NCBI GenBank assembly: GCA_934096075.1
Contig: CAKOLN010000007.1
Coordinates: 4,326-68,325, forward strand
Reading direction: 5' to 3'
Length of the DNA stretch: 64,000 nt
DNA from: an uncultured Bacilli bacterium
Lineage (GTDB): Bacteria > Bacillota_I > Bacilli_A > RF39 > UBA660
The position numbers were made by a program, and so were the translations under genes. Shown piece by piece: positions 35,163-50,490 of the stretch. The notes beneath the pieces were generated by a model that had not been told where the DNA came from, did no database searches, and saw only the letters and a program-made list of their open reading frames with translations. Every line of letters starts with the position of its first letter. The stretch's first letter is position 1.

Positions 35163-35879
35163 TTATAATTCTCTAACATATCTAGGATTCTTATTCGACT
35201 TAACTAATCCCTTAGCATCTCTTAAATACACAATATCTTTTCCAATAAATTCACTAAGCTTATACCTAAATTTTTTCAAAAACTCCAAACAATCTACTTC
35301 TTTAGATAAATACATTTCCTTTAACAAAATATCTTTATTTACAAAATCATCAAAGTAACTATCTACTAAAAAATACATAATCTCTAAATCAAATCCTCTT
35401 CTATTCTCATCAAAAGAAATATCATAATTTCCATATTCAAGAGTATCAATAACCTTAAATTGTCCACTTGAATAAAGTATATTATACATAATATCATATA
35501 TCTTAATATTTCTTTCAGTAAGAAGATTTATATCTACAAATGTTTTGTTAATCGCATTACTTAACTTATTTAAATCTACTCCTAAAGGATTAATTTTATA
35601 TAAATTTTTCTTTTTAGAATAATTCATTACATACCCTATAATATGATTTTTATATTTAACAACATCTACAGGCCACATAAAAGTAGAATTAACTACATCA
35701 CTAAACTTCATAACATCATATTCACTAACACTATCATATTCATCATCAAAATATCCATGAAATATCTTAATCACCTTATTACTTTTAATATCTAAATAAC
35801 ATACACCTTGAGACCCACAACCTAAGTATTTTAAACTATTTAAATATTTCATAAAATATTTCTTATTACTTACTTCCAT
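35163..35879 (-). CDS. small protein kinase-like fold protein (atypical)
   Basis: Gly-rich loop plus Lys: YLGCGSQGVCYLDIKSNKVIKIF. Catalytic-loop-like IYDIMYNILY and DFG-like KVIDTLEYG. Confidence 0.45.
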   Translation of the reverse strand: MEVSNKKYFMKYLNSLKYLGCGSQGVCYLDIKSNKVIKIFHGYFDDEYDSVSEYDVMKFSDVVNSTFMWPVDVVKYKNHIIGYVMNYSKKKNLYKINPLGVDLNKLSNAINKTFVDINLLTERNIKIYDIMYNILYSSGQFKVIDTLEYGNYDISFDENRRGFDLEIMYFLVDSYFDDFVNKDILLKEMYLSKEVDCLEFLKKFRYKLSEFIGKDIVYLRDAKGLVKSNKNPRYVREL

Positions 35880-36003: not shown

Positions 36004-36369
36004 TTAATTTTTAATCTTGTAAATCATAAATTTATCATCAATATATAAAACTATACTATTTTCATCTTCATATTGATATTCATAATCTCCTTCAAAATTA
36101 GATTGATTATCACTACTCGGTAATTTATCACTTTCAACATGACTAGTTATTTTTCCATCCATAACTCCACATCTTGCCTTTTTACTTTCTTCTCCAGTAG
36201 AATAATATAATTTACCATCAACTTTAACAACATTTTCTATATTACTATTTGACTCTAGCGGATTATCTTTAATTAAATTATCTTTATAATATCTAGTACC
36301 TAAAGTACTTATTATAACAATGAAACAAAATATAAAAGTACCAATAACTACATACTTAGTAAACTTCAT
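36004..36369 (-). CDS. hypothetical membrane-anchored protein
   Basis: 121-aa ORF with N-terminal TM VVIGTFIFCFIVIISTLG. A terminator hairpin AACTAC-ttag-GTAGTTTTT follows. Confidence 0.4.
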   Translation of the reverse strand: MKFTKYVVIGTFIFCFIVIISTLGTRYYKDNLIKDNPLESNSNIENVVKVDGKLYYSTGEESKKARCGVMDGKITSHVESDKLPSSDNQSNFEGDYEYQYEDENSIVLYIDDKFMIYKIKN

Positions 36370-39556: not shown

Positions 39557-39677
39557 ACTAACACTTTCCTATCAAAATAATTATATCATTAGTAAAAGAA
39601 AAAAGATATGAATTTAATCTTTTCATACCCAATATTACACATGTTTAACATTTAACTTATACTTCTACTAGTAATTT

Positions 39678-40466
39678 TTAATTAAACTTTTTAGTTAATA
39701 TATAATCCCTATTTGAATCATCTAATTCTACCACACCATAATCATGAACAGCTTCTATTAGTTGACCATTTACATTACGGTATGTTTCCCAAGCATTTGG
39801 CTCTACCGTAACCTTAACTGATATATCATTATTTATTCTTGCTCCTATAAAACTATTAATTGATTGTGTAGAAAAAATTGATGATTCATTCTTTTTATCG
39901 AATATTAATCCAAAATATGACTGCATATTCATACAACTTTTATATTGATTTACAAACATTCCTAAATCCAAAAATGGTATAGTAATATTTTCTATAGGAA
40001 TATTATCAATTAATCCATTAACATATTTAACAAAGCTTTCATAATAAAAGCTTCTAGATATTTTAAATTCATTCAATAATTTTTTTACTGTAGTTATTTC
40101 ATCATAATTTCTATTTTTATTTATATTTATTAAATGCATTAACCATGACAACTTATCATCTAAATTAGAATCATAAAATTCAATAGTTTTTTCTAAAATC
40201 CTACTAGCTACTAAAAATGATAAATATTCACGACTCATAGCCTGAATCATATAACTATCTTTATTTTTTAAATCAGCATCTATTTTTGGCAATCCAAACG
40301 AATCAAAATATAATGCCACTGGTTCTAATAATTCATATGTAAAAGGATAGTTCTTTTCAAGACACTTTAAAAATTCACTTCTTTCTTGTGTATTATATCC
40401 GTACACAAATAAATGTCTATTTTGATTCATTATTATTTTTTTTAAATATTCCTCATTTTTATACAT
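39678..40466 (-). CDS. hypothetical protein with a degenerate P-loop-like N-terminus
   Basis: The 262-aa ORF has a strong RBS (GGGGAGTGAGG). RHLFVYGYNTQERSEFL sits where a Walker A (GxxGxGK[ST]) would be, but Gly/Lys are replaced. The C-terminal motif is VEPNAWETYRNVNGQLIEAVHDYGVVELD. Confidence 0.4.
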   Translation of the reverse strand: MYKNEEYLKKIIMNQNRHLFVYGYNTQERSEFLKCLEKNYPFTYELLEPVALYFDSFGLPKIDADLKNKDSYMIQAMSREYLSFLVASRILEKTIEFYDSNLDDKLSWLMHLININKNRNYDEITTVKKLLNEFKISRSFYYESFVKYVNGLIDNIPIENITIPFLDLGMFVNQYKSCMNMQSYFGLIFDKKNESSIFSTQSINSFIGARINNDISVKVTVEPNAWETYRNVNGQLIEAVHDYGVVELDDSNRDYILTKKFN

Positions 40467-40701
40467 AAGCTTTACCTCACTCCCCGATTTCTATATCAAA
40501 ATTTCATTATATAATTATAGCACAACTACTCTATGATTTCTATAATATATTTCAAATCTTCTATTGCTTTATCTATATTCATCATACCATTGCCTATAGG
40601 TAAAATATTAAAACAACCAAATAATTTTTTCCCTTCAAAATGGTATTTCTTATTTTTAAAATATAATTTTTTGTTGAATAATTGTAAGTTTTTTTCGTAC
40701 A

Positions 40702-40723
40702 ACTTATCTAATAACTTATCTAA
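40702..40723 (+). repeat. tandem CTTATCTA site, copy 1
   Basis: ACTTATCTA-ATAA-CTTATCTAA, directly downstream of the 128-aa gene stop. Confidence 0.7.
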
Positions 40724-40725
40724 AA

Positions 40726-41112
40726 TTATTTATTTATATACTCATCATAATAATCATAACCTTTTTTAGTTATTTTAAATACTTCTCCTTTATACCCAAC
40801 ATCAGTTATATAATCATTATCTTCAAGTTTTTTTAAGGCATCCTCCCAATATGACATTTCCCTTTCAGTTTGTGATGCTGAACCAACTGAAAATCTAGCA
40901 GAACCACATTGTATTGTACGTCCACTAAGAGTTTTTATATAAATTATTGTAGGATTATGTTCATCTTCTATAGTTTTTTTCAAAAGTTTAGAAGCATATT
41001 CATTAGGAATATATTCTTTTGAGTTAATAAAATTATAAAGATTTACTTGTTTTTCTATTTGATTGACTATATTGTCATCACCTTTAATATTAATTTCATT
41101 TTTCTTATTCAT
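40726..41112 (-). CDS. hypothetical protein, third gene of the coupled operon
   Basis: The 128-aa ORF has RBS AGGAGGG and its ATG overlaps the stop of the 56-aa ORF (ATGAATAA). No family recognised. Confidence 0.5.
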   Translation of the reverse strand: MNKKNEINIKGDDNIVNQIEKQVNLYNFINSKEYIPNEYASKLLKKTIEDEHNPTIIYIKTLSGRTIQCGSARFSVGSASQTEREMSYWEDALKKLEDNDYITDVGYKGEVFKITKKGYDYYDEYINK

Positions 41113-41275
41113 TGTACTTACTTCCCTCCTGAACCACTTTATTATTATTCCCTTTTATTTTAGAAACATTTTTGCTTTTAATATTTGTAAAAGTAATACC
41201 GCCTAAAAATCCTACTATTAAACTAATAAAAATTTCTAGCAGATCTTTCCAATTATGTTGTATGAAATCAATCAT
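41105..41275 (-). CDS. unannotated small membrane protein (56 aa)
   Basis: Own translation: MIDFIQHNWKDLLEIFISLIVGFLGGITFTNIKSKNVSKIKGNNNKVVQEGSKYNE*. RBS AGAGGT lies 6 nt upstream. The ATG overlaps the upstream stop (AATGATTGA) and the stop overlaps the downstream ATG. One TM helix is followed by a basic tail. Confidence 0.6.
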   Translation of the reverse strand: MIDFIQHNWKDLLEIFISLIVGFLGGITFTNIKSKNVSKIKGNNNKVVQEGSKYNE

Positions 41276-41588
41276 TTTTTACCTCTGTATCTAGAAGTTT
41301 ATTTAAATCATTTAAATTATGATATATTTTATTCCATCCTTCATGTGATTCAATATATTGCTTACCTAAGCTTGTAACTAAATCCATTTCATTTTCTATT
41401 TCTATACCACCTAAAATATTAAACAATACTCTTTTAGGATTTATGTAATGCTCATTAACCATATCTCTAAATAAGGATACATAAATATCTTCATCAATAT
41501 TATAATTTTTTGAAGTTGGAATAATATCATTGTAAGATATTTCTTTTAATATGCTAAATTCTATAATTTCTTTTTCGATAGGTTTCAT
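41268..41588 (-). CDS. YjcQ-like winged-helix protein (phage-associated family)
   Basis: The 106-aa protein carries FSILKEIS...NIDEDIY........HYI ... LVTSLGKQYIESHEGWNKIYHNLNDLNKLL, resembling my recollection of the YjcQ (PF09639) pattern. Extended -10 TGGTATAAT and RBS AGGAAGTGA lie upstream. Confidence 0.5.
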   Translation of the reverse strand: MKPIEKEIIEFSILKEISYNDIIPTSKNYNIDEDIYVSLFRDMVNEHYINPKRVLFNILGGIEIENEMDLVTSLGKQYIESHEGWNKIYHNLNDLNKLLDTEVKND

Positions 41589-41651
41589 ATTATCACTTCC
41601 TATTTAATTATACCACATGGACTTCATTTTAAGGTTGATTTTGGACAAAAA

Positions 41652-41673
41652 ACTTATCTAAAACTTATCTTAA
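41652..41673 (+). repeat. tandem CTTATCTA site, copy 2 (upstream of the wHTH operon promoter)
   Basis: ACTTATCTA-AAA-CTTATCTTAA. An extra half-site TTATCTAAAAATTGTAAG lies at 41693..41710. Confidence 0.7.
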
Positions 41674-41714
41674 TGCCTTTTTTGAGGTGAAATTATCTAA
41701 AAATTGTAAGTAGT

Positions 41715-41754
41715 AAAAAGCTCGCAAGCCCTTTATTTATAAGGATTTGCGAAC
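41715..41754 (-). terminator. degenerate copy of the secA terminator
   Basis: Minus strand: GTTCGCAAATCC-ttataaataaa-GGGCTTGCGAGC-TTTTT. It is homologous to the real secA terminator but has 3 stem mismatches. Confidence 0.5.
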
Positions 41755-41900
41755 TTATTTACCACAACACTACTTATACTTGCGTCCACTGCCACATGGC
41801 CTTTTGTATTGGGGATTTTGGTAGCTTTTGGGAGCACTTGGCTAGTTATTTTGGCATTTGGCTGCACCCCAGAGCACTCCGTAGCACTCGGCAAACCTAG
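41755..41900 (-). pseudogene. decayed duplicate of the secA 3' end (C-terminal zinc-finger tail)
   Basis: TTATTTACCACAACA at 41755..41769 is identical to 43984..43998. Translation gives ...KRPCGSGRKYK*CCGK* versus the authentic ...DPCPCGSGRKYKQCCGK*. It has an in-frame TAG, a small deletion/frameshift, and GC content visibly above the surroundings. Confidence 0.75.
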
Positions 41901-41904
41901 TAGA

Positions 41905-41930
41905 ACTTATCTAAAAACTTATCTAAAAAA
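41905..41930 (+). repeat. tandem CTTATCTA site, copy 3
   Basis: ACTTATCTA-AAAA-CTTATCTAAAAAA, between the 572-aa gene stop and the secA remnant. Confidence 0.7.
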
Positions 41931-41985
41931 TAACGAATTTTAATAAATTACAATTTTTAGGCAAGAATAACATTTTGTAATTTAA

Positions 41986-43704
41986 CTACATCCAAAATCT
42001 TATTTCTTCTATTTTATAACCTCTTTTTTCTATTTCCTCAACTATTTGTTTAAAACTTGTGGAATTCATATTTTTAATTCTTCTATATCCACCAAAAGAT
42101 TTTGGTGCTACTTGTGGAATATTTTCCAATAACCAATAATAGACTTCTCTATCATGTGCTTCTTCAATATAAGGGTCAATTATTCGTTTTTGATAGTCTT
42201 CAGCACTTTCTGTTCCTGTTTCAGAAGCAAACTTTTGTAAATTATGCAATTCATCTACTCGTGTACCATGTAATTTATTCAAATTTTTATGTTCTACTTT
42301 TGCATCTTCAAATCTCCCTGCTAAAATCATCATATCAACTAATCTTTCATAGTCATCTCTTGTATATGCGTAAAAAGAATGAGGATACAACTCGTTTACT
42401 TTTTTCAAACACGCTATTGCTAAATCATAGCTTTTATTATTTTTATACTCTGTAGCTTTTCTACTAAGTATTTGTTCTGGCATATATACAACACTTTCGC
42501 CACCATCAGAATATTTTTGAGCTTCAGTTATAAGTATAGACATTATTCCATCTATAGTTGTTAAATCATATTTGCTATTAAACTCATTGATTTTTTTATT
42601 AGTATAACTATCATATCCTGTTTCATAGTTTTTATTATTCTGATTTTCTTTTTTTACTGTATCATCAATTAATTGTTCAGGTTGTACATTATTACTTTGT
42701 TTATTCTTCTTTTTATTCTTAATAATCAATATAATAACTATCGGTGATAAAAAGATACCTGCTGTTATTATGATCGCTAACATATCTATTATAGTAGAAA
42801 CAATAGCAGGATAATCAGTAATAATTATTTCATATATATTTTCATTATCATTTTCATCTAAAACTATTAATTTTATCTTGTCATTTTCTTTCAATGATTC
42901 TAGTTTTGTAATCTCTTTTTCGTTTAAATATATTTTTAGTTTTGCCTTTGCATCACTTAACTCGTATGAATAGTCTAGGGATGTTTCATTCTTTAATTTA
43001 GTTATGGTAGCTTTGTTGTTTTCAAATTCAACTTCACTAGATCCTAATACAAATTTTTTAATTGTAGCTGTTCCCTTGCCTTTAGTTTTATTAATTGTTA
43101 AAGTATAATTCTTTTTGTCTCCATTTTCGGCAGTAACAACTATATTAATTGTATTTTCACCCAGTGATAATTCTTTATTTTCAAATTCAACTTTCGCTTT
43201 TGAATCATTTGCTTCTATCTTAATGTCAACATGTTTTTTTTCTGTTTTAAAATTCATATTATCAGAAACAGTTATTTGTTCATCATCTATAGATACTTCT
43301 TTTATAGAATTATCTTTGCTTTTTTCTATAACAACTTCTTTTTGGCTGTTATTTTGTGTATTATTGTTTGAATAATTATTACCATAATTGCTACTTGTCC
43401 CACCGTTTCCGGAACTGTTCGATGAAGAGTTGCTGCTACCATCCGTTGCTCCAGCAGTCCCCTCATTTTTGTTATAGCCAGAACATGGATCACTATAAAT
43501 TGCTTCTCCATCAGCATAATAATTATTTCCGTTTGTCACCGCCACATGCCAATGAGTTCCGCCATGACCATCACTGTGCATTCCATATGTAACACCATTT
43601 GGACATGTTTTTATAGAACTTTTTCTTAAACCACCACCTGTTGCATTTACTGTAAGTGGTAAAAGTACTAACATACAAATTCCTAATGTTAAAATCCTTT
43701 TCAT
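41986..43704 (-). CDS. bitopic surface protein: signal peptide, His-rich (GGTHWH) module, Asn/Ser/Gly linker, cadherin-like beta-sandwich repeats, TM helix, helical cytoplasmic domain
   Basis: ATG 43704 (MKRILTLGICMLVLLPLTVNA) follows RBS AAGAGGTG. Motifs include MHSDGHGGTHWHV and the cadherin-like signature GENTINIVVTAENGDKKNYTLTINKT. The TM is IIDMLAIIITAGIFLSPIVIILII, followed by a C-terminal region of about 230 aa of unknown family. Confidence 0.7.
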   Translation of the reverse strand: MKRILTLGICMLVLLPLTVNATGGGLRKSSIKTCPNGVTYGMHSDGHGGTHWHVAVTNGNNYYADGEAIYSDPCSGYNKNEGTAGATDGSSNSSSNSSGNGGTSSNYGNNYSNNNTQNNSQKEVVIEKSKDNSIKEVSIDDEQITVSDNMNFKTEKKHVDIKIEANDSKAKVEFENKELSLGENTINIVVTAENGDKKNYTLTINKTKGKGTATIKKFVLGSSEVEFENNKATITKLKNETSLDYSYELSDAKAKLKIYLNEKEITKLESLKENDKIKLIVLDENDNENIYEIIITDYPAIVSTIIDMLAIIITAGIFLSPIVIILIIKNKKKNKQSNNVQPEQLIDDTVKKENQNNKNYETGYDSYTNKKINEFNSKYDLTTIDGIMSILITEAQKYSDGGESVVYMPEQILSRKATEYKNNKSYDLAIACLKKVNELYPHSFYAYTRDDYERLVDMMILAGRFEDAKVEHKNLNKLHGTRVDELHNLQKFASETGTESAEDYQKRIIDPYIEEAHDREVYYWLLENIPQVAPKSFGGYRRIKNMNSTSFKQIVEEIEKRGYKIEEIRFWM

Positions 43705-43783
43705 TCTTACACCTCTTATAATAATTATAACATAAATTATTGGTATAATTTTGATATTACAACTTTTAAATAACAAATTACAA

Positions 43784-43808
43784 TTTAGATAATTTTTAGA
43801 TAAGTTTT
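43784..43808 (-). repeat. tandem CTTATCTA site, copy 4 (inverted relative to the others; upstream of the 572-aa gene)
   Basis: The plus strand reads TTTAGATAATTTTTAGATAAGTTTT, which is the reverse complement of AAAACTTATCTA-AAAA-TTATCTAAA. Confidence 0.7.
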
Positions 43809-43881
43809 GTATTTAATTTGAGAACATTCTTATAATATGCGTTTTGCCCTTATTTTATAAGGGCTTGCAAGGATTTTACTG

Positions 43882-43902
43882 CTTATCTAAAACTTATCTA
43901 AG
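43882..43902 (+). repeat. tandem CTTATCTA site, copy 5 (just downstream of the secA terminator)
   Basis: CTTATCTA-AAA-CTTATCTAAG occupies the same relative position to the authentic secA end as copy 2 does to the remnant. Confidence 0.7.
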
Positions 43903-43944
43903 ACAAAAGACATGCCTAAAATTACCTAAATATTGTAATCATAG

Positions 43945-43983
43945 AAAAACCCGCAATCCCTTATTTTATACGGGTTCGCGGGC
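43945..43983 (-). terminator. rho-independent terminator of secA
   Basis: Minus strand: GCCCGCGAACCC-gtataaaataa-GGGATTGCGGG-TTTTTC, immediately after the TAA. Confidence 0.85.
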
Positions 43984-46476
43984 TTATTTACCACAACATT
44001 GTTTATATTTACGTCCTGAGCCACAAGGACAAGGATCATTTCTACCAACAGTTTGGTTCTTTTTAACAGGTTTTGATTTAACCTTTTCTTTACTATCATT
44101 AGTTCTAATATTTTTATTCTCAACTCTTTCTAAGTTTTGTCTAACTTCTGCTTTAAGTAAATAAGTAGTTATTTCTTTATTAGTCTCTTTTAACATATTG
44201 TCAAAAAGTTCAAAACCTTCTAGTGCATAAGCCTGTAATGGATTAGTTTGAGCATATCCTCTTAATCCAATTCCTTCTTTTAAATGTTCCATATTATCTA
44301 GCTGATTCATCCAATTCTTATCTAATACTTTTAACGTAATAGCTTTTTCAAAATCATCTTGTATATCTAAAGGAACTTCACTTAGCTTAGAATTATAATC
44401 ATTAACAACTATATCATAAATATAATCTTGCATTTCAGGAATACTCTTACTTTCTAATTCTTTCTCATCTAATTTTTTAGATTTAAGTAAATTAGCATTA
44501 AAGTACTCACATATATTAACTACATCATTATGTGTAATTGTATCCTCAGGTGGAAAATGATTATTAATTTGATCAATAACAAATTCTTTAAATATAGTTA
44601 AAATTCTATCTTTTATATTATCTTTATCTAATATTTCATTTCTTCTTTCATAAACAATTTCTCTCTGTTTACTAATTACATTATCATAATCAAGTAATGC
44701 TTTTCTTCTATCATAGTTAAATCCTTCAACTCTCTTTTGACTAGATTCAATATTTTTACTCATCATTCTATGATTTATAGGTGTATTTTCATCAAAACCA
44801 AGACTACCCATTAAAGATTTTATTTTTTCACTACCAAACTTAATCATTAAGTCATCTTCCATAGAAACATAGAATCTTGTTCTACCTGGGTCTCCTTGTC
44901 TACCACTTCTACCTCTTAATTGATTATCAATACGTCTACTTTCATGTCTCTCAGTACCTATTACTAAAAGACCACCTAATTCCTTAACACCTTCACCCAA
45001 TTTAATATCTGTACCACGTCCAGCCATATTAGTTGCAATAGTAACAGCATCTTTTTGACCAGCTTTTTCTATTATATGAGCTTCTCTTTCATGATTCTTT
45101 GCATTTAATAGTTCATGTGGTATTCTTTTTTTATTTAATAAACCACTTAAATATTCACTACTTTCAATTGATGCAGTACCAACTAATATAGGTTGATGAG
45201 TCTTATGTATTTCTTCTATATAATTAGCAATAGCATTATATTTACCTCTTTTATTCATAAATACATAATCTTCTTCATCTATTCTAATAACAGGTTTATT
45301 TGTAGGAATTACAATAACATACATATTATAAATATTTCTAAATTCTTCCTCTTCAGTTTTAGCAGTACCTGTCATACCTGATAACTTATTATACATTCTA
45401 AATAAATTTTGAAAAGTAATCGTAGCCAAAACTTTAGTTTCTTCATTAATATGTACCCCTTCTTTTGCTTCTAAAGCTTGATGAAGTCCATCACTATATT
45501 GTCTTCCATGCATAAGTCTACCAGTAAATGCATCTACAATTATAATTTTATCACTATCAACTACATAATCCACATCTTTTTTAAATCCATAATTAGCAAC
45601 TAAAGCCTTATCTAAATTATGCACTATGGCAGCATTCTTAATATCATATAAATTATCAACATTCAATAATCTTTCTGCTTTTACAATACCTTCTTCAGTT
45701 AAAGTAACGCTTCTAGTTTTTTCATCTAACACATAATCATCAGTAGTTAAACTCTTAGCCGTTCTATCCGCTAATTTATATAAATCAGCACTTTTACTTA
45801 CACCACCACTTATAATTAACGGAGTTCTTGCTTCATCTATTAATATTGAGTCAACTTCATCTATAATTGCAAAATTTAAAGGTCTTTGTACTCTATTTTT
45901 CCTTCTAACAACCATGTTATCTCTTAAATAGTCAAACCCTAATTCATTATTAGTTGTATATGTAATATCTTTACTATATGCTTCTCTCTTTTGTTCTGGA
46001 GTAGCATCTTTCAAATTAACTCCTACACTAACATCAAGATAATTATAAATCTTACCCATCCATTCAGCATCACGTACACTTAAATATTCATTTACTGTAA
46101 CAACATGAACACCTTTTCCAGATAACGCATTTAAATATGCAGGCATAGTACTTGTTAAAGTTTTACCTTCACCTGTTTTCATCTCAGCTATATTACCATA
46201 ATGTATACATATACCACCAATAACTTGAACTTTATAAGGTTTTTCTCCTATCATTCTATATGCAGCCTCTCTAACAACCGCAAAAGCAGGCACTAATATA
46301 TCATCCAATGTTTCTCCATCTTTTAATCTAGTCTTAAATTCTTGAGTTTTAGCTTTCAATTCTAAATCTGTTAGTTTACTCATTTCTTCATCTAAAGCCA
46401 TAACTTCATCAGCTAACTTATCAAATCTTTGTAATTCTTTATATTCTCTGTCAAATAATTTTGTAAATATATTCAT
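43984..46476 (-). CDS. secA: preprotein translocase ATPase SecA
   Basis: Walker A MKTGEGKT, DEAD-like IIDEVDSILIDEARTPLIISG, TNMAGRGTDI, and C-terminal zinc finger CPCGSGRKYKQCCGK. Confidence 0.97.
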   Translation of the reverse strand: MNIFTKLFDREYKELQRFDKLADEVMALDEEMSKLTDLELKAKTQEFKTRLKDGETLDDILVPAFAVVREAAYRMIGEKPYKVQVIGGICIHYGNIAEMKTGEGKTLTSTMPAYLNALSGKGVHVVTVNEYLSVRDAEWMGKIYNYLDVSVGVNLKDATPEQKREAYSKDITYTTNNELGFDYLRDNMVVRRKNRVQRPLNFAIIDEVDSILIDEARTPLIISGGVSKSADLYKLADRTAKSLTTDDYVLDEKTRSVTLTEEGIVKAERLLNVDNLYDIKNAAIVHNLDKALVANYGFKKDVDYVVDSDKIIIVDAFTGRLMHGRQYSDGLHQALEAKEGVHINEETKVLATITFQNLFRMYNKLSGMTGTAKTEEEEFRNIYNMYVIVIPTNKPVIRIDEEDYVFMNKRGKYNAIANYIEEIHKTHQPILVGTASIESSEYLSGLLNKKRIPHELLNAKNHEREAHIIEKAGQKDAVTIATNMAGRGTDIKLGEGVKELGGLLVIGTERHESRRIDNQLRGRSGRQGDPGRTRFYVSMEDDLMIKFGSEKIKSLMGSLGFDENTPINHRMMSKNIESSQKRVEGFNYDRRKALLDYDNVISKQREIVYERRNEILDKDNIKDRILTIFKEFVIDQINNHFPPEDTITHNDVVNICEYFNANLLKSKKLDEKELESKSIPEMQDYIYDIVVNDYNSKLSEVPLDIQDDFEKAITLKVLDKNWMNQLDNMEHLKEGIGLRGYAQTNPLQAYALEGFELFDNMLKETNKEITTYLLKAEVRQNLERVENKNIRTNDSKEKVKSKPVKKNQTVGRNDPCPCGSGRKYKQCCGK

Positions 46477-46526: not shown

Positions 46527-46547
46527 GAAAAAAGCGATTTCTCGCTT
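46527..46547 (-). terminator. hairpin terminator/attenuator between hpf and secA
   Basis: Minus strand: AAGCGA-gaaa-TCGCTT followed by TTTTC. Confidence 0.55.
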
Positions 46548-47068
46548 TAGTTAGTCTCTATAATTCCATAAGTTCCATCATATCTTTTATATAAAACATT
46601 AACATTTTCTGTTTTAATATCTTTATATATATAGAAATTATGTCCAGAAAGTTCCATTTCTAATATTGCATCTTCTTCATGCATTGGTTTTAAATAAACT
46701 TTCTTTCTTTTTACTATTTCTTCTATTTCGTCATCATCTATAATTTCCTCTTCATTATAAACAATTTGAACTCTATCTTTACTCATTAATTTAGATTTAT
46801 ATTTTCTCATTTGTGTTTCTAACTTATCAACAACTAAATCAATCGCAGCATATAAATCACTATGTGATACCTCAGCTCTTAAGTCATATTTACCACCATT
46901 AATAGTAACTTCAACTTTTTGTTCTCTACCTCTAATACTAAAAATCACTTTACAAACTATATTATTTGGATTATCAAAATACTTTTCCATTCTAGAAAGT
47001 TTATCAGTAGCATATTCCTTCATAGACGGAGTTACTTCCATTCTTTCACCACGTATTTGAAAATTCAT
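46547..47068 (-). CDS. hpf: ribosome hibernation-promoting factor (long HPF)
   Basis: N-terminal S30AE/sigma-54 modulation domain (MNFQIRGERMEVTPSMKEYATDKL) plus a C-terminal dimerisation domain (KPMHEEDAILEMELSGHNFYIYKD). Confidence 0.93.
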   Translation of the reverse strand: MNFQIRGERMEVTPSMKEYATDKLSRMEKYFDNPNNIVCKVIFSIRGREQKVEVTINGGKYDLRAEVSHSDLYAAIDLVVDKLETQMRKYKSKLMSKDRVQIVYNEEEIIDDDEIEEIVKRKKVYLKPMHEEDAILEMELSGHNFYIYKDIKTENVNVLYKRYDGTYGIIETN

Positions 47069-47640: not shown

Positions 47641-48252
47641 ATGAAAGATCTTTTAATTAATTCCACAATGAATAATATTAAACGATATTATAATTATGAC
47701 GAAGTAAGGTTAAAAGAAATAAGATATGGTTTAGCAAGTTTATATCTACATTTAACTAAAACAATTGTAATATTTAGTTTATCATATTTATTTGGATATT
47801 TAAGAACACTTCTTATATTAATGGCAACATATAGTGTACTAAGACTAACTGCCTTTGGTGTACATGCAAAAAAAAGTTCACATTGCTGGATAGCATCTTC
47901 TATTACATTTCTGCTTTTACCAATATTATGTGAAAGTTTAAATATAAATCTTAAATTTAAGATATTAATATCTGTGTTTTGTATAATATTTTTAAGTATC
48001 TATGCACCTGCCGACACTGAAAAAAGGCCATTAATAAATAAAAAGAAAAGAATTATATTTAAAATCGTAACAATTATTTCAAGCATAACATATTTAATTC
48101 TTATTGTAATAATTAAAGACTATATTTTAAATAATTGTATTTTATTTGGATTAATACTAGGTACAGTTGCTGTATTACCAATAACTTACAAATTATTTGG
48201 AGTAAAGTATAATAATTATAAAAATTATAAGAAAGGAGGATTAAATAAATGA
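47641..48252 (+). CDS. agrB: accessory gene regulator B (AgrD-processing membrane peptidase)
   Basis: 203-aa polytopic protein with the conserved catalytic region RLTAFGVHAKKSSHCWIASS (His...Cys). Confidence 0.9.
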   Translation: MKDLLINSTMNNIKRYYNYDEVRLKEIRYGLASLYLHLTKTIVIFSLSYLFGYLRTLLILMATYSVLRLTAFGVHAKKSSHCWIASSITFLLLPILCESLNINLKFKILISVFCIIFLSIYAPADTEKRPLINKKKRIIFKIVTIISSITYLILIVIIKDYILNNCILFGLILGTVAVLPITYKLFGVKYNNYKNYKKGGLNK

Positions 48253-48365
48253 AATTATTTGCTAGTTTATTCAGCTACTTAGGAGAATTCATCGCAAAAA
48301 CAACTTCTGGAGCTTGCTGGTTCAGTATGTTAGATGAAGAAGAAACACCAGAAAGTCTTTTATAA
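48249..48365 (+). CDS. agrD: autoinducing peptide precursor AgrD (38 aa), not in the ORF track
   Basis: Its ATG overlaps the agrB stop (ATGA). Own translation: MKLFASLFSYLGEFIAKTTSGACWFSMLDEEETPESLL*. It has an amphipathic leader, a Cys-containing core (CWFSM) and an acidic recognition tail (LDEEETPESLL), as in known AgrD peptides. Confidence 0.8.
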   Translation: MKLFASLFSYLGEFIAKTTSGACWFSMLDEEETPESLL

Positions 48366-48379
48366 AAAAATTAAAAATG

Positions 48380-48395
48380 ACACTTATTAAAGTGT
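48380..48395. terminator. short bidirectional hairpin between the convergent agrD and agrC
   Basis: ACACTT-atta-AAGTGT is flanked by an A-run and a T-run. It overlaps the agrC stop. Confidence 0.45.
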
Positions 48396-49685
48396 TATTT
48401 TTAATTCTGTTACAAAATCTTTATCAAACATATATTGACTCAAAGATAATTGTTCTGAACTAGTAATCAACTTATTTACAATATATAATCCATAACCGTG
48501 ATTTTTTCCTTTAGTACTAAATCCTTTTTTATTTATATTTTCTATATCAACCTTATCTTCACAACTATTTTGAATTAAAACAAATAATTCATTTCCAAGC
48601 TTAAACATTTCTATAAAAATCAATTTTTCGTTAGTATGTATTGTTGCTTCAATAGCATTATCTAATAAAATGCCAATAATTTTGCAAACTTTATAATAAA
48701 GCTTTGCATCCAATTTATCAAAATAAGTGTATACCTCTTTACTTATTTCAGTATTAAAATTAATGTTTTTATCAATTATATTAGCTACTTTATAATAAAC
48801 TATACCCTTTACACCAGTAGGTAAAGTATAAAGCCTAGTGTAAGCACCATTCTTCTTATTCTGATAATCATTTAAAATTTCACTTAATAAATCTTCATAC
48901 TCAATGCTTGCTTTATTTTTAAAACTTTTGAGTACAACCAAGTTATTCAACATTTCATGTCGATTTTCTCTATTAACTTCTAGCATAGACTCATACTCAT
49001 TCATTATATCTAACAATGCTTTTTGTTCAGCCAAAGCCGTTTTATTTTTAATAAATTCTTTGACCAATACAAATGATAACAAGGAAAACGCTAATAACAA
49101 AAAGAAAGTCATCCAAAAACTTTCAAAAAGAAAGTTAAAAGCATGTACATATGTAGCTAACACGAATGTCGAAAAAACAATTACTATCACTATTATAATT
49201 ACTGAACTAATTTTATTTTCAATTAGTTTAAAAAGATTTTTAGTAAAGCTAAGAAATTTTCTCATTTTAAATAAAAGATATAAGAAAATTGTTACGAAAA
49301 AGGTTGAAAATGCCTTTAATATATCAAGTGCATACATATTTACCTTATTTCCTGATGATAATATAAGTAAAAATAAAGATATTAAAAAATCAAAAATAAA
49401 TATAGCAATATATAAATATAAAGTTTTAAATAAAACAACATAATATTTTTCCTTAAATATTAAAAGTAACATTAAATACACTAATAATAACATAAATACT
49501 ATCTTAAATTTTGATACTACAAACATATTAATTATAAAATCAAATACTGCACTTATTAATATTGTTAATATACTTTTTAAATTTAATTCACATGTATCAT
49601 TCAAAGTTTTTTCATAACATTTTACCAGAACAAACAAATTTAAAAATGCTCCAATAAAACACAATGCATAACTAACGATTTTCAC
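48387..49685 (-). CDS. agrC: AgrC-like sensor histidine kinase (HPK10, GHKL ATPase)
   Basis: About 6 TM segments in the N-terminus. H-box-like NRENRHEMLNNL, N-box IGILLDNAIEA and G-box GFSTKGKNHGYGLYIV. Confidence 0.8.
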   Translation of the reverse strand: MKIVSYALCFIGAFLNLFVLVKCYEKTLNDTCELNLKSILTILISAVFDFIINMFVVSKFKIVFMLLLVYLMLLLIFKEKYYVVLFKTLYLYIAIFIFDFLISLFLLILSSGNKVNMYALDILKAFSTFFVTIFLYLLFKMRKFLSFTKNLFKLIENKISSVIIIVIVIVFSTFVLATYVHAFNFLFESFWMTFFLLLAFSLLSFVLVKEFIKNKTALAEQKALLDIMNEYESMLEVNRENRHEMLNNLVVLKSFKNKASIEYEDLLSEILNDYQNKKNGAYTRLYTLPTGVKGIVYYKVANIIDKNINFNTEISKEVYTYFDKLDAKLYYKVCKIIGILLDNAIEATIHTNEKLIFIEMFKLGNELFVLIQNSCEDKVDIENINKKGFSTKGKNHGYGLYIVNKLITSSEQLSLSQYMFDKDFVTELKITL

Positions 49686-50394
49686 GTTCCATCAACTCTT
49701 TCCTTCGTAATCTAGAAAGCATATATACTTCTTCTCCACTATCTAAAACAAACTTGCTATTCTTCCAATCAAACAATTTAACTCTGGCCATATTAACAAT
49801 ACAAGATTTATGAGTATAAACATAATTATTTGTTAAATGCTTATAAAATTTTTTAAGTGTTGTTGTAAGTGGATAACTTCCATTGTCAGTAACAACCATA
49901 ATTCTTCTTTCATTATTTAGTTTGTAAATATATTGAATTTTATCATAATCAAAATTATAACTCATAAAACTATTTTTATAACTAAACTTCTCAGAATAAT
50001 TCAATTGTGCTAAACATAAATCAAACAATTCTAATAAATTTGACTGATAATCTTCATCCTTAACAATAAAATCTAATATTTGTAACCTTTCTTTATATGC
50101 TTTAAGAATTACATTATCATCACCCTCAGCCGTAAAAATAACAATAGGACTATCCCAATCATCTTCTCTTATCTTTCTTGCAATATCAACAGCTGTACCA
50201 TTTGGAAGATAATAATCTAATAAGAAAACATGTTTTTCATAACAATTTTCACACTTTTCAAATATACCATCACAAATTTTATCATATTTAACTATATCAA
50301 ACTTGTAATTGGTAGTTAACATATAATTCATTATTAATCTTTCAACATCATCTCTATTGAATTTATTATCCTCTACAATTATAAACTTTATCAT
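49672..50394 (-). CDS. agrA: LytTR-family response regulator (AgrA-like)
   Basis: Receiver domain MIKFIIVEDNK...FLLDYYLP. The C-terminal LytTR pattern is ...YIYKLNNERRIMVVTDNGSYPLTTTLKKF...THKSCIVNM. ATG 50394 follows RBS AGAGGG. The gene overlaps the agrC start by 14 nt. Confidence 0.85.
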   Translation of the reverse strand: MIKFIIVEDNKFNRDDVERLIMNYMLTTNYKFDIVKYDKICDGIFEKCENCYEKHVFLLDYYLPNGTAVDIARKIREDDWDSPIVIFTAEGDDNVILKAYKERLQILDFIVKDEDYQSNLLELFDLCLAQLNYSEKFSYKNSFMSYNFDYDKIQYIYKLNNERRIMVVTDNGSYPLTTTLKKFYKHLTNNYVYTHKSCIVNMARVKLFDWKNSKFVLDSGEEVYMLSRLRRKELMERENR

Positions 50395-50490
50395 AGAAAC
50401 CCTCTTTCTCGTATTGCCAAAGCAATAATATAATAACACCTTTTTAACAAAAATAACAGGCCCTACTAGGTCATTTTTTTATTTTTTTCT

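Follow-up and report, generated by a model that had tools for sequence, protein, structure and literature searches.

The islet downstream of secA in an uncultured gut Bacilli bacterium: probable state of a site-specific integration hot spot holding integrase-less cassettes

We analyzed a 64,000-nt stretch of contig CAKOLN010000007.1 from an uncultured Bacilli bacterium, hereafter the window, and more specifically the islet of five genes that follows secA. This islet very probably reflects how a hot spot of site-specific integration, located in the secA 3′ end, is occupied in this strain, namely by integrase-less cassettes that resemble cis-mobilizable elements (CIMEs). The original prediction had regarded this region, at 39600-43983, as the most likely place for a single undescribed system of horizontal origin. 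Horizontal acquisition was borne out by strain polymorphism, but the notion of one five-gene system was not, since the units occur separately. The region is three independent units and not one: cassette 1 (44019-41791, 2229 bp) with p572 as cargo, cassette 2 (41790-40601) with p106-p56-p128, and a separate insertion with p262. The boundary had also been put too far downstream, as foreign DNA begins at 44019, that is, 36 nt within the secA open reading frame (ORF), and not at 43983. The five ORFs themselves were found as described, on the minus strand between hpf-secA and the Acyl_transf_3/dgkA genes. The gene order over 34-48 kb, all on the minus strand, is hpf, secA, p572, p106, p56, p128, p262, a gene for an Acyl_transf_3/SGNH protein, and dgkA.

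46547-47068, minus strand: hpf
43984-46476, minus strand: secA
41986-43707, minus strand: p572, cargo of cassette 1
41268-41588, minus strand: p106, first gene of the cassette 2 operon, with an 8-nt overlap with p56
41105-41275, minus strand: p56, a micro-protein with a single transmembrane (TM) segment, translationally coupled at both ends
40726-41112, minus strand: p128, member of a narrow family
39678-40466, minus strand: p262, cargo of a separate 889-bp insertion

SecA relatives placed the window among uncultured low-GC gut Bacilli, and the NCBI titles of related contigs read "uncultured Bacilli", Clostridium sp. CAG:628, CAG:1000, or "Tenericutes". By comparing the secA-downstream regions of relatives (L-numbers designate the collected contigs or loci, and W the window), we found the presence/absence polymorphism with breakpoints at repeats that the original prediction had suggested looking for. 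In L156, a conspecific strain whose secA is 98.3% identical at the DNA level, secA is directly followed by p106-p56-p128 (99-100% identical) and p262, and there is no p572. The functional secA tail of L156 is the one found displaced in the window, except that it reads CAG for TAG. Conversely, cassette 1 occurs without the other units in L233. Indeed, L233 and L234 carry it at 97.4% identity over 2305 nt, with the same core boundaries, in a 413-kb contig that has no other DNA in common with the window and in which different cassettes flank p572; the p572 protein of L233 is 99% identical. In the window, the final 12 secA codons and the secA terminator come from cassette 1, and this functional tail is identical to the tail preceding p572 in L233. 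Set side by side, W, L156, and L233 show that cassette 1 can be complete in one conspecific strain and cleanly missing in another, and that the junction falls at the core described below. The L233 array is made of a block resembling an integrative and mobilizable element (IME; two integrases, ParAB, and a relaxase), a 216-aa/Q_salvage cassette, p572, and then prfB, yitT, and ftsEX. In L120, cassette 1 lies beside yet another cassette. As for prfB, whose usual place was proposed to be right after secA, it is found directly there in distant Clostridia loci and just beyond the cassette array in L233, and it is absent from the 64-kb window.

Two further conspecific strains, L001 and L002 (secA DNA ~98% identical), gave another picture of the same interval. 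Their homology with the window ends at the secA stop, returns at 40600-40539, and then resumes from 39652 on. The interval holds a GNAT gene, VanZ, an ASCH/APH deletion remnant, and a 219-aa gene of the uracil-DNA glycosylase (UDG) superfamily in L001, and LysR, a flavoprotein, a kinase, ASCH, APH, and the same UDG gene in L002. None of the five islet proteins was found in any of 80 secA loci. Incidentally, we noticed that the remnant in L001 (13879-14022, versus 15652-16981 in L002) is a 47-aa ORF joining the N-terminus of ASCH to the C-terminus of APH, that is, a clean internal deletion.

The junctions themselves bear the organization of attachment sites. The secA 3′ end with its terminator, at 43919-44028, recurs at 41690-41799 as a direct repeat of 110 nt with 76% identity; this second copy translates as C-G-S-G-R-K-Y-K-stop-C-C-G-K and is degenerate. 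The two secA tails of the window show seven synonymous differences and no non-synonymous one. Direct-repeat pairs of TTAGATAAG stand at fixed distances on either side of each secA-tail copy. The window contains 10 copies of TTAGATAAG for 2.35 expected, and eight of these lie in the intergenic regions of the islet, always paired and with a spacing of 11-12 nt; the repeats noted in the original prediction are real and confined to the islet. Alignment of the W, L156, and L233 junctions located the crossover at CCWTGTGGC, which encodes Pro-Cys-Gly in the CPCGSG motif of the SecA zinc finger. Partners switch exactly at this core, though homology runs ~90 nt further. A test for target duplication found the core at both ends of the insert, as CCTTGTGGC at 44028-44020 and CCATGTGGC at 41799-41791. 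Full attL and attR sites are present, so that the mobility signature, previously thought to be indirect only, is direct. The features are as follows.

44020-44028, minus strand: att core copy 1 (CCTTGTGGC), left junction of cassette 1, from the three-way comparison
43984-44019, minus strand: cassette-borne secA end (SGRKYKQCCGK, then stop), replacing the last 12 codons (11 plus the stop)
43942-43985, minus strand: terminator hairpin and U-run of cassette 1 (-19.8 kcal/mol, z -4.0)
43882-43938, minus strand: left (P′-type) arm of cassette 1, with TTACAAT, TTAGGTAAT, and a pair of TTAGATAAG at 43901-43882
43785-43868, minus strand: extra terminator-like hairpin (43868-43846) and inverted arm-like pair CTTATCTAAAAATTATCTAA (43804-43785), before the p572 promoter
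41800-41926, minus strand: right (P-type) arm of cassette 1, with two copies of TTAGATAAG at 41926-41906 and a GC-richer AGTGCT-repeat module up to the core
41791-41799, minus strand: att core copy 2 (CCATGTGGC), junction shared by cassette 1 (on its right) and cassette 2 (on its left)
41755-41790, minus strand: displaced former secA tail, CAG changed to TAG, otherwise identical to the functional L156 secA tail
41653-41756, minus strand: terminator hairpin (-17.3 kcal/mol) and left arm of cassette 2, with TTACAAT, TTAGATAAT, and a TAAGATAAG/TTAGATAAG pair
40601-40723, minus strand: complete right arm of cassette 2, TTAGATAAG-TTA-TTAGATAAG and a conserved arm of ~100 nt
40542-40600, minus strand: 3′ remnant of a UDG-superfamily gene, beginning with the putative pseudo-core CCTATAGG, joint of cassette 2
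39653-40541, minus strand: separate 889-bp insertion with its own promoter and p262, from strain comparison
39635-39652, minus strand: last five codons and stop (NVKHV, stop) of the interrupted UDG-family gene

Both terminator hairpins were missed by the terminator scan, because their loops exceed 8 nt, and were seen by direct folding. The left arm of cassette 1 lies 97 nt from the secA-tail motif, like 54 L-type sites in the collected loci. The extra hairpin and inverted pair, an arrangement also found in L233 with TTAGATACG variants, might represent an inverted att in vestigial form or else serve in regulation. The GC-richer module of ~105 nt at 41800-41905, with its three AGTGCT repeats, is kept before the core in L233 and L016; it could be a site for accessory proteins (Xis/IHF-like) or contain core-type sites. 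We also considered, by eye, whether TTAGATAAG might be a DnaA box or a dif-like site and rejected both, as it has two mismatches to TTATNCACA and forms a direct repeat, not an inverted 11-6-11 one. The window contains no tRNA gene and no Rfam match; hence, the repeats correspond neither to a known RNA nor to a tRNA target.

The right end of cassette 2 differs from the other ends. Its right arm matches six other right arms base for base up to the core position, beyond which the sequence runs into CCTATAGGCAATGG of a UDG-family gene and not into CCATGTGGnagtGG. As read from this junction, the right end of cassette 2 is a secondary-site event at the core position, with CCTATAGG in the UDG-family gene acting as pseudo-core. 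Such an event accounts for the missing genes that once separated secA from the UDG 3′ end. The 58-aa ORF at 40526-40702 is the C-terminal remnant of this UDG-superfamily gene, whose last codons are split by the 889-bp insertion (40541-39653), NVKHV-stop remaining at 39652-39635. We examined p262 as a possible member of a cassette and rejected it because it has no flanking att features and its homologues occupy ordinary chromosomal settings in which att sites are absent. In L236, a p262 homologue is also located between secA and the acyltransferase gene, again without att sites.

The same organization was met in other species. Pairs of TTAGATAAG are present downstream of secA in L016, L020, and L075, and many related loci have two to five secA-tail copies, each followed by a hairpin and a short direct-repeat pair. 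The arm-repeat sequence varies by lineage (TTAGATAAG, TTAGATACG, TTAGATACC, TACATACG, TTGTCCAC, and others). A metagenome scan for the TTAGATAAG pair returned at least 120 loci; among the matches listed, most were human-gut and rumen contigs of 24-30% GC with secA-tail copies. Of the 178 pairs in the collected loci, 54 follow a secA-tail copy at 89-107 nt (mostly 96-97) and form the L-type class, and 44 precede such a copy at 92-178 nt (mostly 148-157 or 174-178) and form the R-type class; extended consensus arms exist in both. Fifty-two loci with two to five tail copies yielded 80 intervals, whose length has a median of 1555 bp and ranges over 703-6790 bp, containing 204 ORFs of at least 70 aa in 142 clusters. 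Integrase-like ORFs were present in only four of these 80 intervals. The main ORF was co-oriented with secA in 65 of the 67 non-redundant cassettes, and 36 of them had a single ORF of at least 100 aa. The loci that have this pool of cassettes in common encode SecA proteins with only 47-70% identity to the one of the window. The cargo includes GNATs, NUDIX proteins, phosphoesterases, paralogues of methionyl- and arginyl-tRNA synthetases (MetRS and ArgRS), Fic/RhuM, and surface proteins. Single-gene, att-flanked cassettes with paralogues that read, by eye, as full-length ArgRS and MetRS were observed at secA in L020 (15125-16792) and in L136, L121, L155, and L202 (544-aa ORFs); they could be antibiotic-resistance or back-up enzymes.

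A mechanism can be proposed from these data. Phage-type tyrosine integrases with an arm-binding domain would recombine the attP of an element with the zinc-finger codons of secA, at the core CCWTGTGGC. The attP, ~330 bp long, would run from a P arm, which has a TTAGATAAG pair, through a pseudo-secA lead to the core, and from there through a spare secA tail and a terminator to a P′ arm made of TTAGrTAAT and a TTAGATAAG pair. Integration would exchange the final 12 secA codons, together with the terminator, for the synonymous copy brought by the element, so that SecA would stay intact. The old tail, pushed downstream, would become the next attachment site, and elements would thereby stack in tandem. 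In the case of the window, an L156-like ancestor would already have held cassette 2, whose right end had joined the UDG pseudo-core with deletion of the genes in between, and cassette 1 would have inserted later at the secA core, an order deduced from the junctions. p262 belongs to an unrelated 889-bp insertion in the 3′ end of the same UDG-family gene. The integrase would be supplied by a prophage or an IME; lacking their own, the cassettes would be mobilizable in cis or in trans, in a CIME-like manner.

Where might such an integrase come from? A homologue search of the 64 kb confirmed the earlier statement that no integrase is visible in the window. In two viral contigs, L106 and L108, we found a pseudo-secA tail, a terminator, and a TTAGATAAG pair, next to a convergent gene for a 387-aa Phage_integrase protein, behind which come a CI/LexA-like repressor and then phage genes. 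The integrase of L136 is 53% identical to the L106 enzyme, and its Arm-DNA-bind_4 score of 21.8 bits is just below the 22.3-bit cut-off. Altogether, 32 tyrosine-recombinase-like ORFs were present in the collected loci; several abut secA-tail copies and many are fragmentary. We infer that integrases of this type would bind the repeats and move integrase-less cassettes in trans. A scan of viral contigs for the repeat pair gave 32 matches, 30 of which were unrelated coding repeats, and relatives of the L106 integrase in viral contigs were limited to the same two contigs and one at only 31% identity.

Several points weigh against the integration hot spot scheme. No integrase lies within the 64-kb window, and neither an excised circular form nor an empty site was directly observed. 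The link between TTAGATAAG and an integrase comes from one prophage in two contigs. Also, 80 of the 178 pairs have no recognizable secA-tail copy nearby; contig ends, degenerate copies, and chance matches may be among the causes. The L136 integrase lies beside a degenerate secA tail with different repeats, namely two copies of TAGAACCAT (L136 reverse strand, 1-1455); this fits with arm specificity co-varying with the integrase and suggests that the former may diversify along with the latter. Last, homologous recombination between att repeats of ~100-300 bp could shuffle cassettes without any integrase. Pushed to its limit, this idea would make the region a hypervariable one, reassorted by homologous recombination between the flanks (secA and acyltransferase genes) and the repeated terminators, with no site-specific step at all. 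The 100-300 bp of homology offered by the att repeats would serve such exchanges, and L001 and L002 do differ in the interval without TTAGATAAG sites. Yet, the same 9-bp core was used in independent contexts despite ~90 nt of additional homology, one junction is at a non-homologous pseudo-core, and integrases sit directly beside secA-tail copies, which makes this purely homologous version highly improbable.

A possibility closer to the proposed scheme was that the cassettes are inert scars, left when prophages or IMEs at secA decayed by deletion and only morons persisted between att copies. CIMEs are by definition decayed elements (PMC5704250), split or truncated integrase ORFs exist in a few intervals, and an element at recG that has its own integrase includes a relative of p572 in its cargo. 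However, both arms are fully conserved around very small cargos, the same cassette with the same boundaries occurs among different neighbors in a contig with no other common DNA, and conspecific strains differ by the exact presence or absence of cassette 1; we consider inert scars unlikely. It could also be argued that the TTAGATAAG pairs are operators for the winged-helix protein p106, hence regulatory and not recombination sites, given that they lie upstream of the p572 and p106 promoters and that p106 is weakly YjcQ/winged-helix-like. This has little probability in our view, as pairs flank cassettes that have no p106 (L075, L020, L016, and L233), stand at a constant distance from the secA-tail copy, and directly adjoin the phage integrase in L106. 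Likewise, the five genes might form one coherent system acquired horizontally, such as an anti-phage defense operon: they are co-oriented, lack housekeeping annotation, and homologues of p56-p128 lie among restriction-modification (R-M), OLD/AAA_15, and AbiJ genes in L245-L247. This is very hard to reconcile with units that occur separately (L233 and L156), with p262 homologues in non-att contexts, with terminators and att sites between units, and with the lack of PADLOC matches, and we give it hardly any credit.

As to the cargo, the view that the five proteins have no housekeeping role held true: searches in Pfam, NCBIfam, PADLOC, and PHROGs linked none of them to a curated housekeeping family. 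The sole above-threshold match among them was Cadherin-like in p572, with a marginal 26 bits. PHROGs and NCBIfam gave sub-threshold noise only for the islet proteins, and p56, p128, and p262 had no match in any of the four collections. The islet proteins had no significant match to the defense-system models of PADLOC-DB 2.0 either. A PADLOC PDC-M35B match at the C-terminus of p572 (18.6 bits, with no domain stretch) was discarded, as it was absent with the isolated domain and with five homologues.

The p572 protein is made of a signal peptide, a Cadherin-like beta-sandwich, a TM helix, and a cytoplasmic domain of ~190 aa that is ~50% identical to the C-terminus of DUF4236 proteins. Its relatives are mostly 320-370 aa long and comprise the signal peptide, beta-sandwich, and TM part. 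One relative, 45% identical, is cargo of an integrase/AAA_25 element at recG. p572 is probably a membrane-anchored surface protein whose family is repeatedly carried by integrative elements; as to its role, our guess would favor surface modification or exclusion.

In cassette 2, p106 is a small protein with a weak likeness to YjcQ winged-helix proteins. The likeness stood, but the assignment itself fell short of the Pfam threshold (PF09639, 17.4 bits for a gathering threshold of 23.3 bits). The hidden 56-aa TM ORF turned out to be a real gene, as p56 is kept beside p128 homologues in L156, L242, and L245. The AlphaFold2 model of p128 (pLDDT 80) has a weak winged-helix resemblance. Foldseek searches with the AlphaFold2 models of p128 and p262 gave no significant structural match, and profile searches of PDB sequences with both proteins gave no usable match. 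In L242, p105-p56-p128 and an APH gene are located between TTAGATACG arms. In L245-L247, a 59-aa/221-aa version of p56-p128 lies among a MutH-type R-M system, OLD/AAA_15, AbiJ, and a serine recombinase; p106 compared with the C-terminal extension of the 221-aa p128 relatives gave a pairwise E value of 0.027. p56-p128 is a conserved, translationally coupled two-gene module and, because its homologues sit in a defense island, a candidate exclusion or abortive-infection module; we would guess at a small membrane-effector module. We noticed a KG-(N/D)3-x-V-x-Q motif in both proteins, in p56 within the C-terminal tail (SKIKGNNNKVVQEG) and in p128 within the N-terminus, which is disordered (NIKGDDNIVNQIEKQ); the L245 homologues have it as well. 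Arms of the cassette 2 type surround other cargo in L075, that is, a 341-aa protein, a Fic/Doc protein, and a 165-aa protein. The 341-aa protein had no Pfam match and is RhuM-like by eye.

Outside the cassettes, p262 has homologues at 36-96% identity. p262 itself did not match the Pfam ORC-CDC6-like family (PF24389), and homologues at 56-71% identity scored 28-34 bits for a 27-bit cut-off, over a partial profile only. At the expected Walker A position it reads GYNTQERS, without Lys, and is degenerate. Its model (pLDDT 88) has a generic P-loop NTPase fold, with TM-scores of at most 0.34. In L236 (5151-6789), a 246-aa AAA_23/AAA_15/AAA_21 ATPase directly precedes the p262 homologue; the two may form a two-gene module, and this partner is absent in the window.

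Two other regions of the window were noted. Downstream of dgkA and cmpB, 35163-35879 (238 aa) and 36004-36369 (121 aa) are conserved ORFs that have no assigned family; L001 and L002 have both, and the CAG:628-like L006 and L055 encode proteins sharing 43-46% identity with the 238-aa one. At 47641-50439 lies an agr-like quorum-sensing locus encoding AgrB (203 aa), a GHKL sensor kinase (432 aa), and a LytTR response regulator (255 aa). The DNA identity of this 47.1-50.0 kb stretch with conspecific L001, L002, and L156 is only ~70-72%; it is 74-82% for the next 3.6 kb upstream and 97-98% for the neighboring hpf and secA. From these identities, the locus looks like a replacement of one allelic specificity group by another.

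How do the secA cassettes compare with known systems? A CIME keeps attL and attR and has lost integration and transfer genes (PMC5704250), and the cassettes retain attL/attR with no integrase; as to transfer, the occurrence of cassette 1 in L233 is indirect evidence. The CIMEs/ICESt1-ICESt3 at fda of Streptococcus thermophilus (PMC5704250) are likewise att-flanked, without integrase or transfer genes, and in tandem via a regenerated target; both types would need an integrase from another element. In contrast, here the target is the zinc-finger end of secA, the median size is 1.55 kb with mostly one gene, up to five copies are found, the cargo is very diverse, and the window shows no link to a conjugative element. 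The resemblance to lambda att lies in a short core within a longer target mimicry, direct-repeat arms on both sides at fixed spacing, and, in the prophage member, an integrase gene beside one att site. Core duplication, precise presence/absence, and spaced arms were all found, whereas an integrase of their own was not found for most members; arm binding is predicted from the repeats, and no Xis or IHF sites were identified. In the tycheposons of Prochlorococcus, repeated duplication of the 3′ end of a conserved single-copy gene also marks stacked islands. The tandem islands at ssrA in Dehalococcoides (PMC3146451) share this duplication, the stacking, and adaptive cargo. In contrast with both, the target here is protein-coding, the cassettes are miniature and mostly without integrase, and the hosts are reduced-genome gut Bacilli. 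With integrons, the common points are arrays of mostly single co-oriented genes, recombination sites proper to the cassettes, diverse cargo, and a recombinase outside the cassettes. Unlike integrons, we found no IntI/attI/Pc platform, there being no IntI-like gene beside secA, and no attC hairpin; the sites are ~330 bp and lambda-like, and the cassettes start with a terminator and have their own promoter-like sequences. A literature search retrieved no description of secA as an integration target, which amounts to no more than absence of evidence. The mechanism is already known; the secA target and the integron-like miniaturization appear to be undescribed.

Collectively, these data turn orphan genes of unclear origin into a case with a defined, testable mobility mechanism and identify the 3′ end of an essential gene, at the zinc-finger codons of SecA, as the likely attachment site. 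They also point to a pool of miniature integrase-less cassettes at secA in many uncultured gut and rumen Bacilli. The conserved att consensus would be a search key for the accessory genome of organisms known only from metagenome-assembled genomes, whose contigs tend to break at these att repeats in assembly. A bolder idea, which we regard as possible rather than probable, is that the secA tail of these low-GC gut Bacilli is an integron-like platform of lambda-type att sites, where phage or IME integrases acting in trans would capture, stack, and exchange single-gene cassettes between species. Every cassette would then bear a full attP of ~330 bp with a spare SecA zinc-finger tail. If this were true, the platform, with a cargo including unrecognized modules such as p56-p128, a candidate membrane-acting pair for exclusion or defense, would be a major engine of the flexible genome in small-genome hosts.

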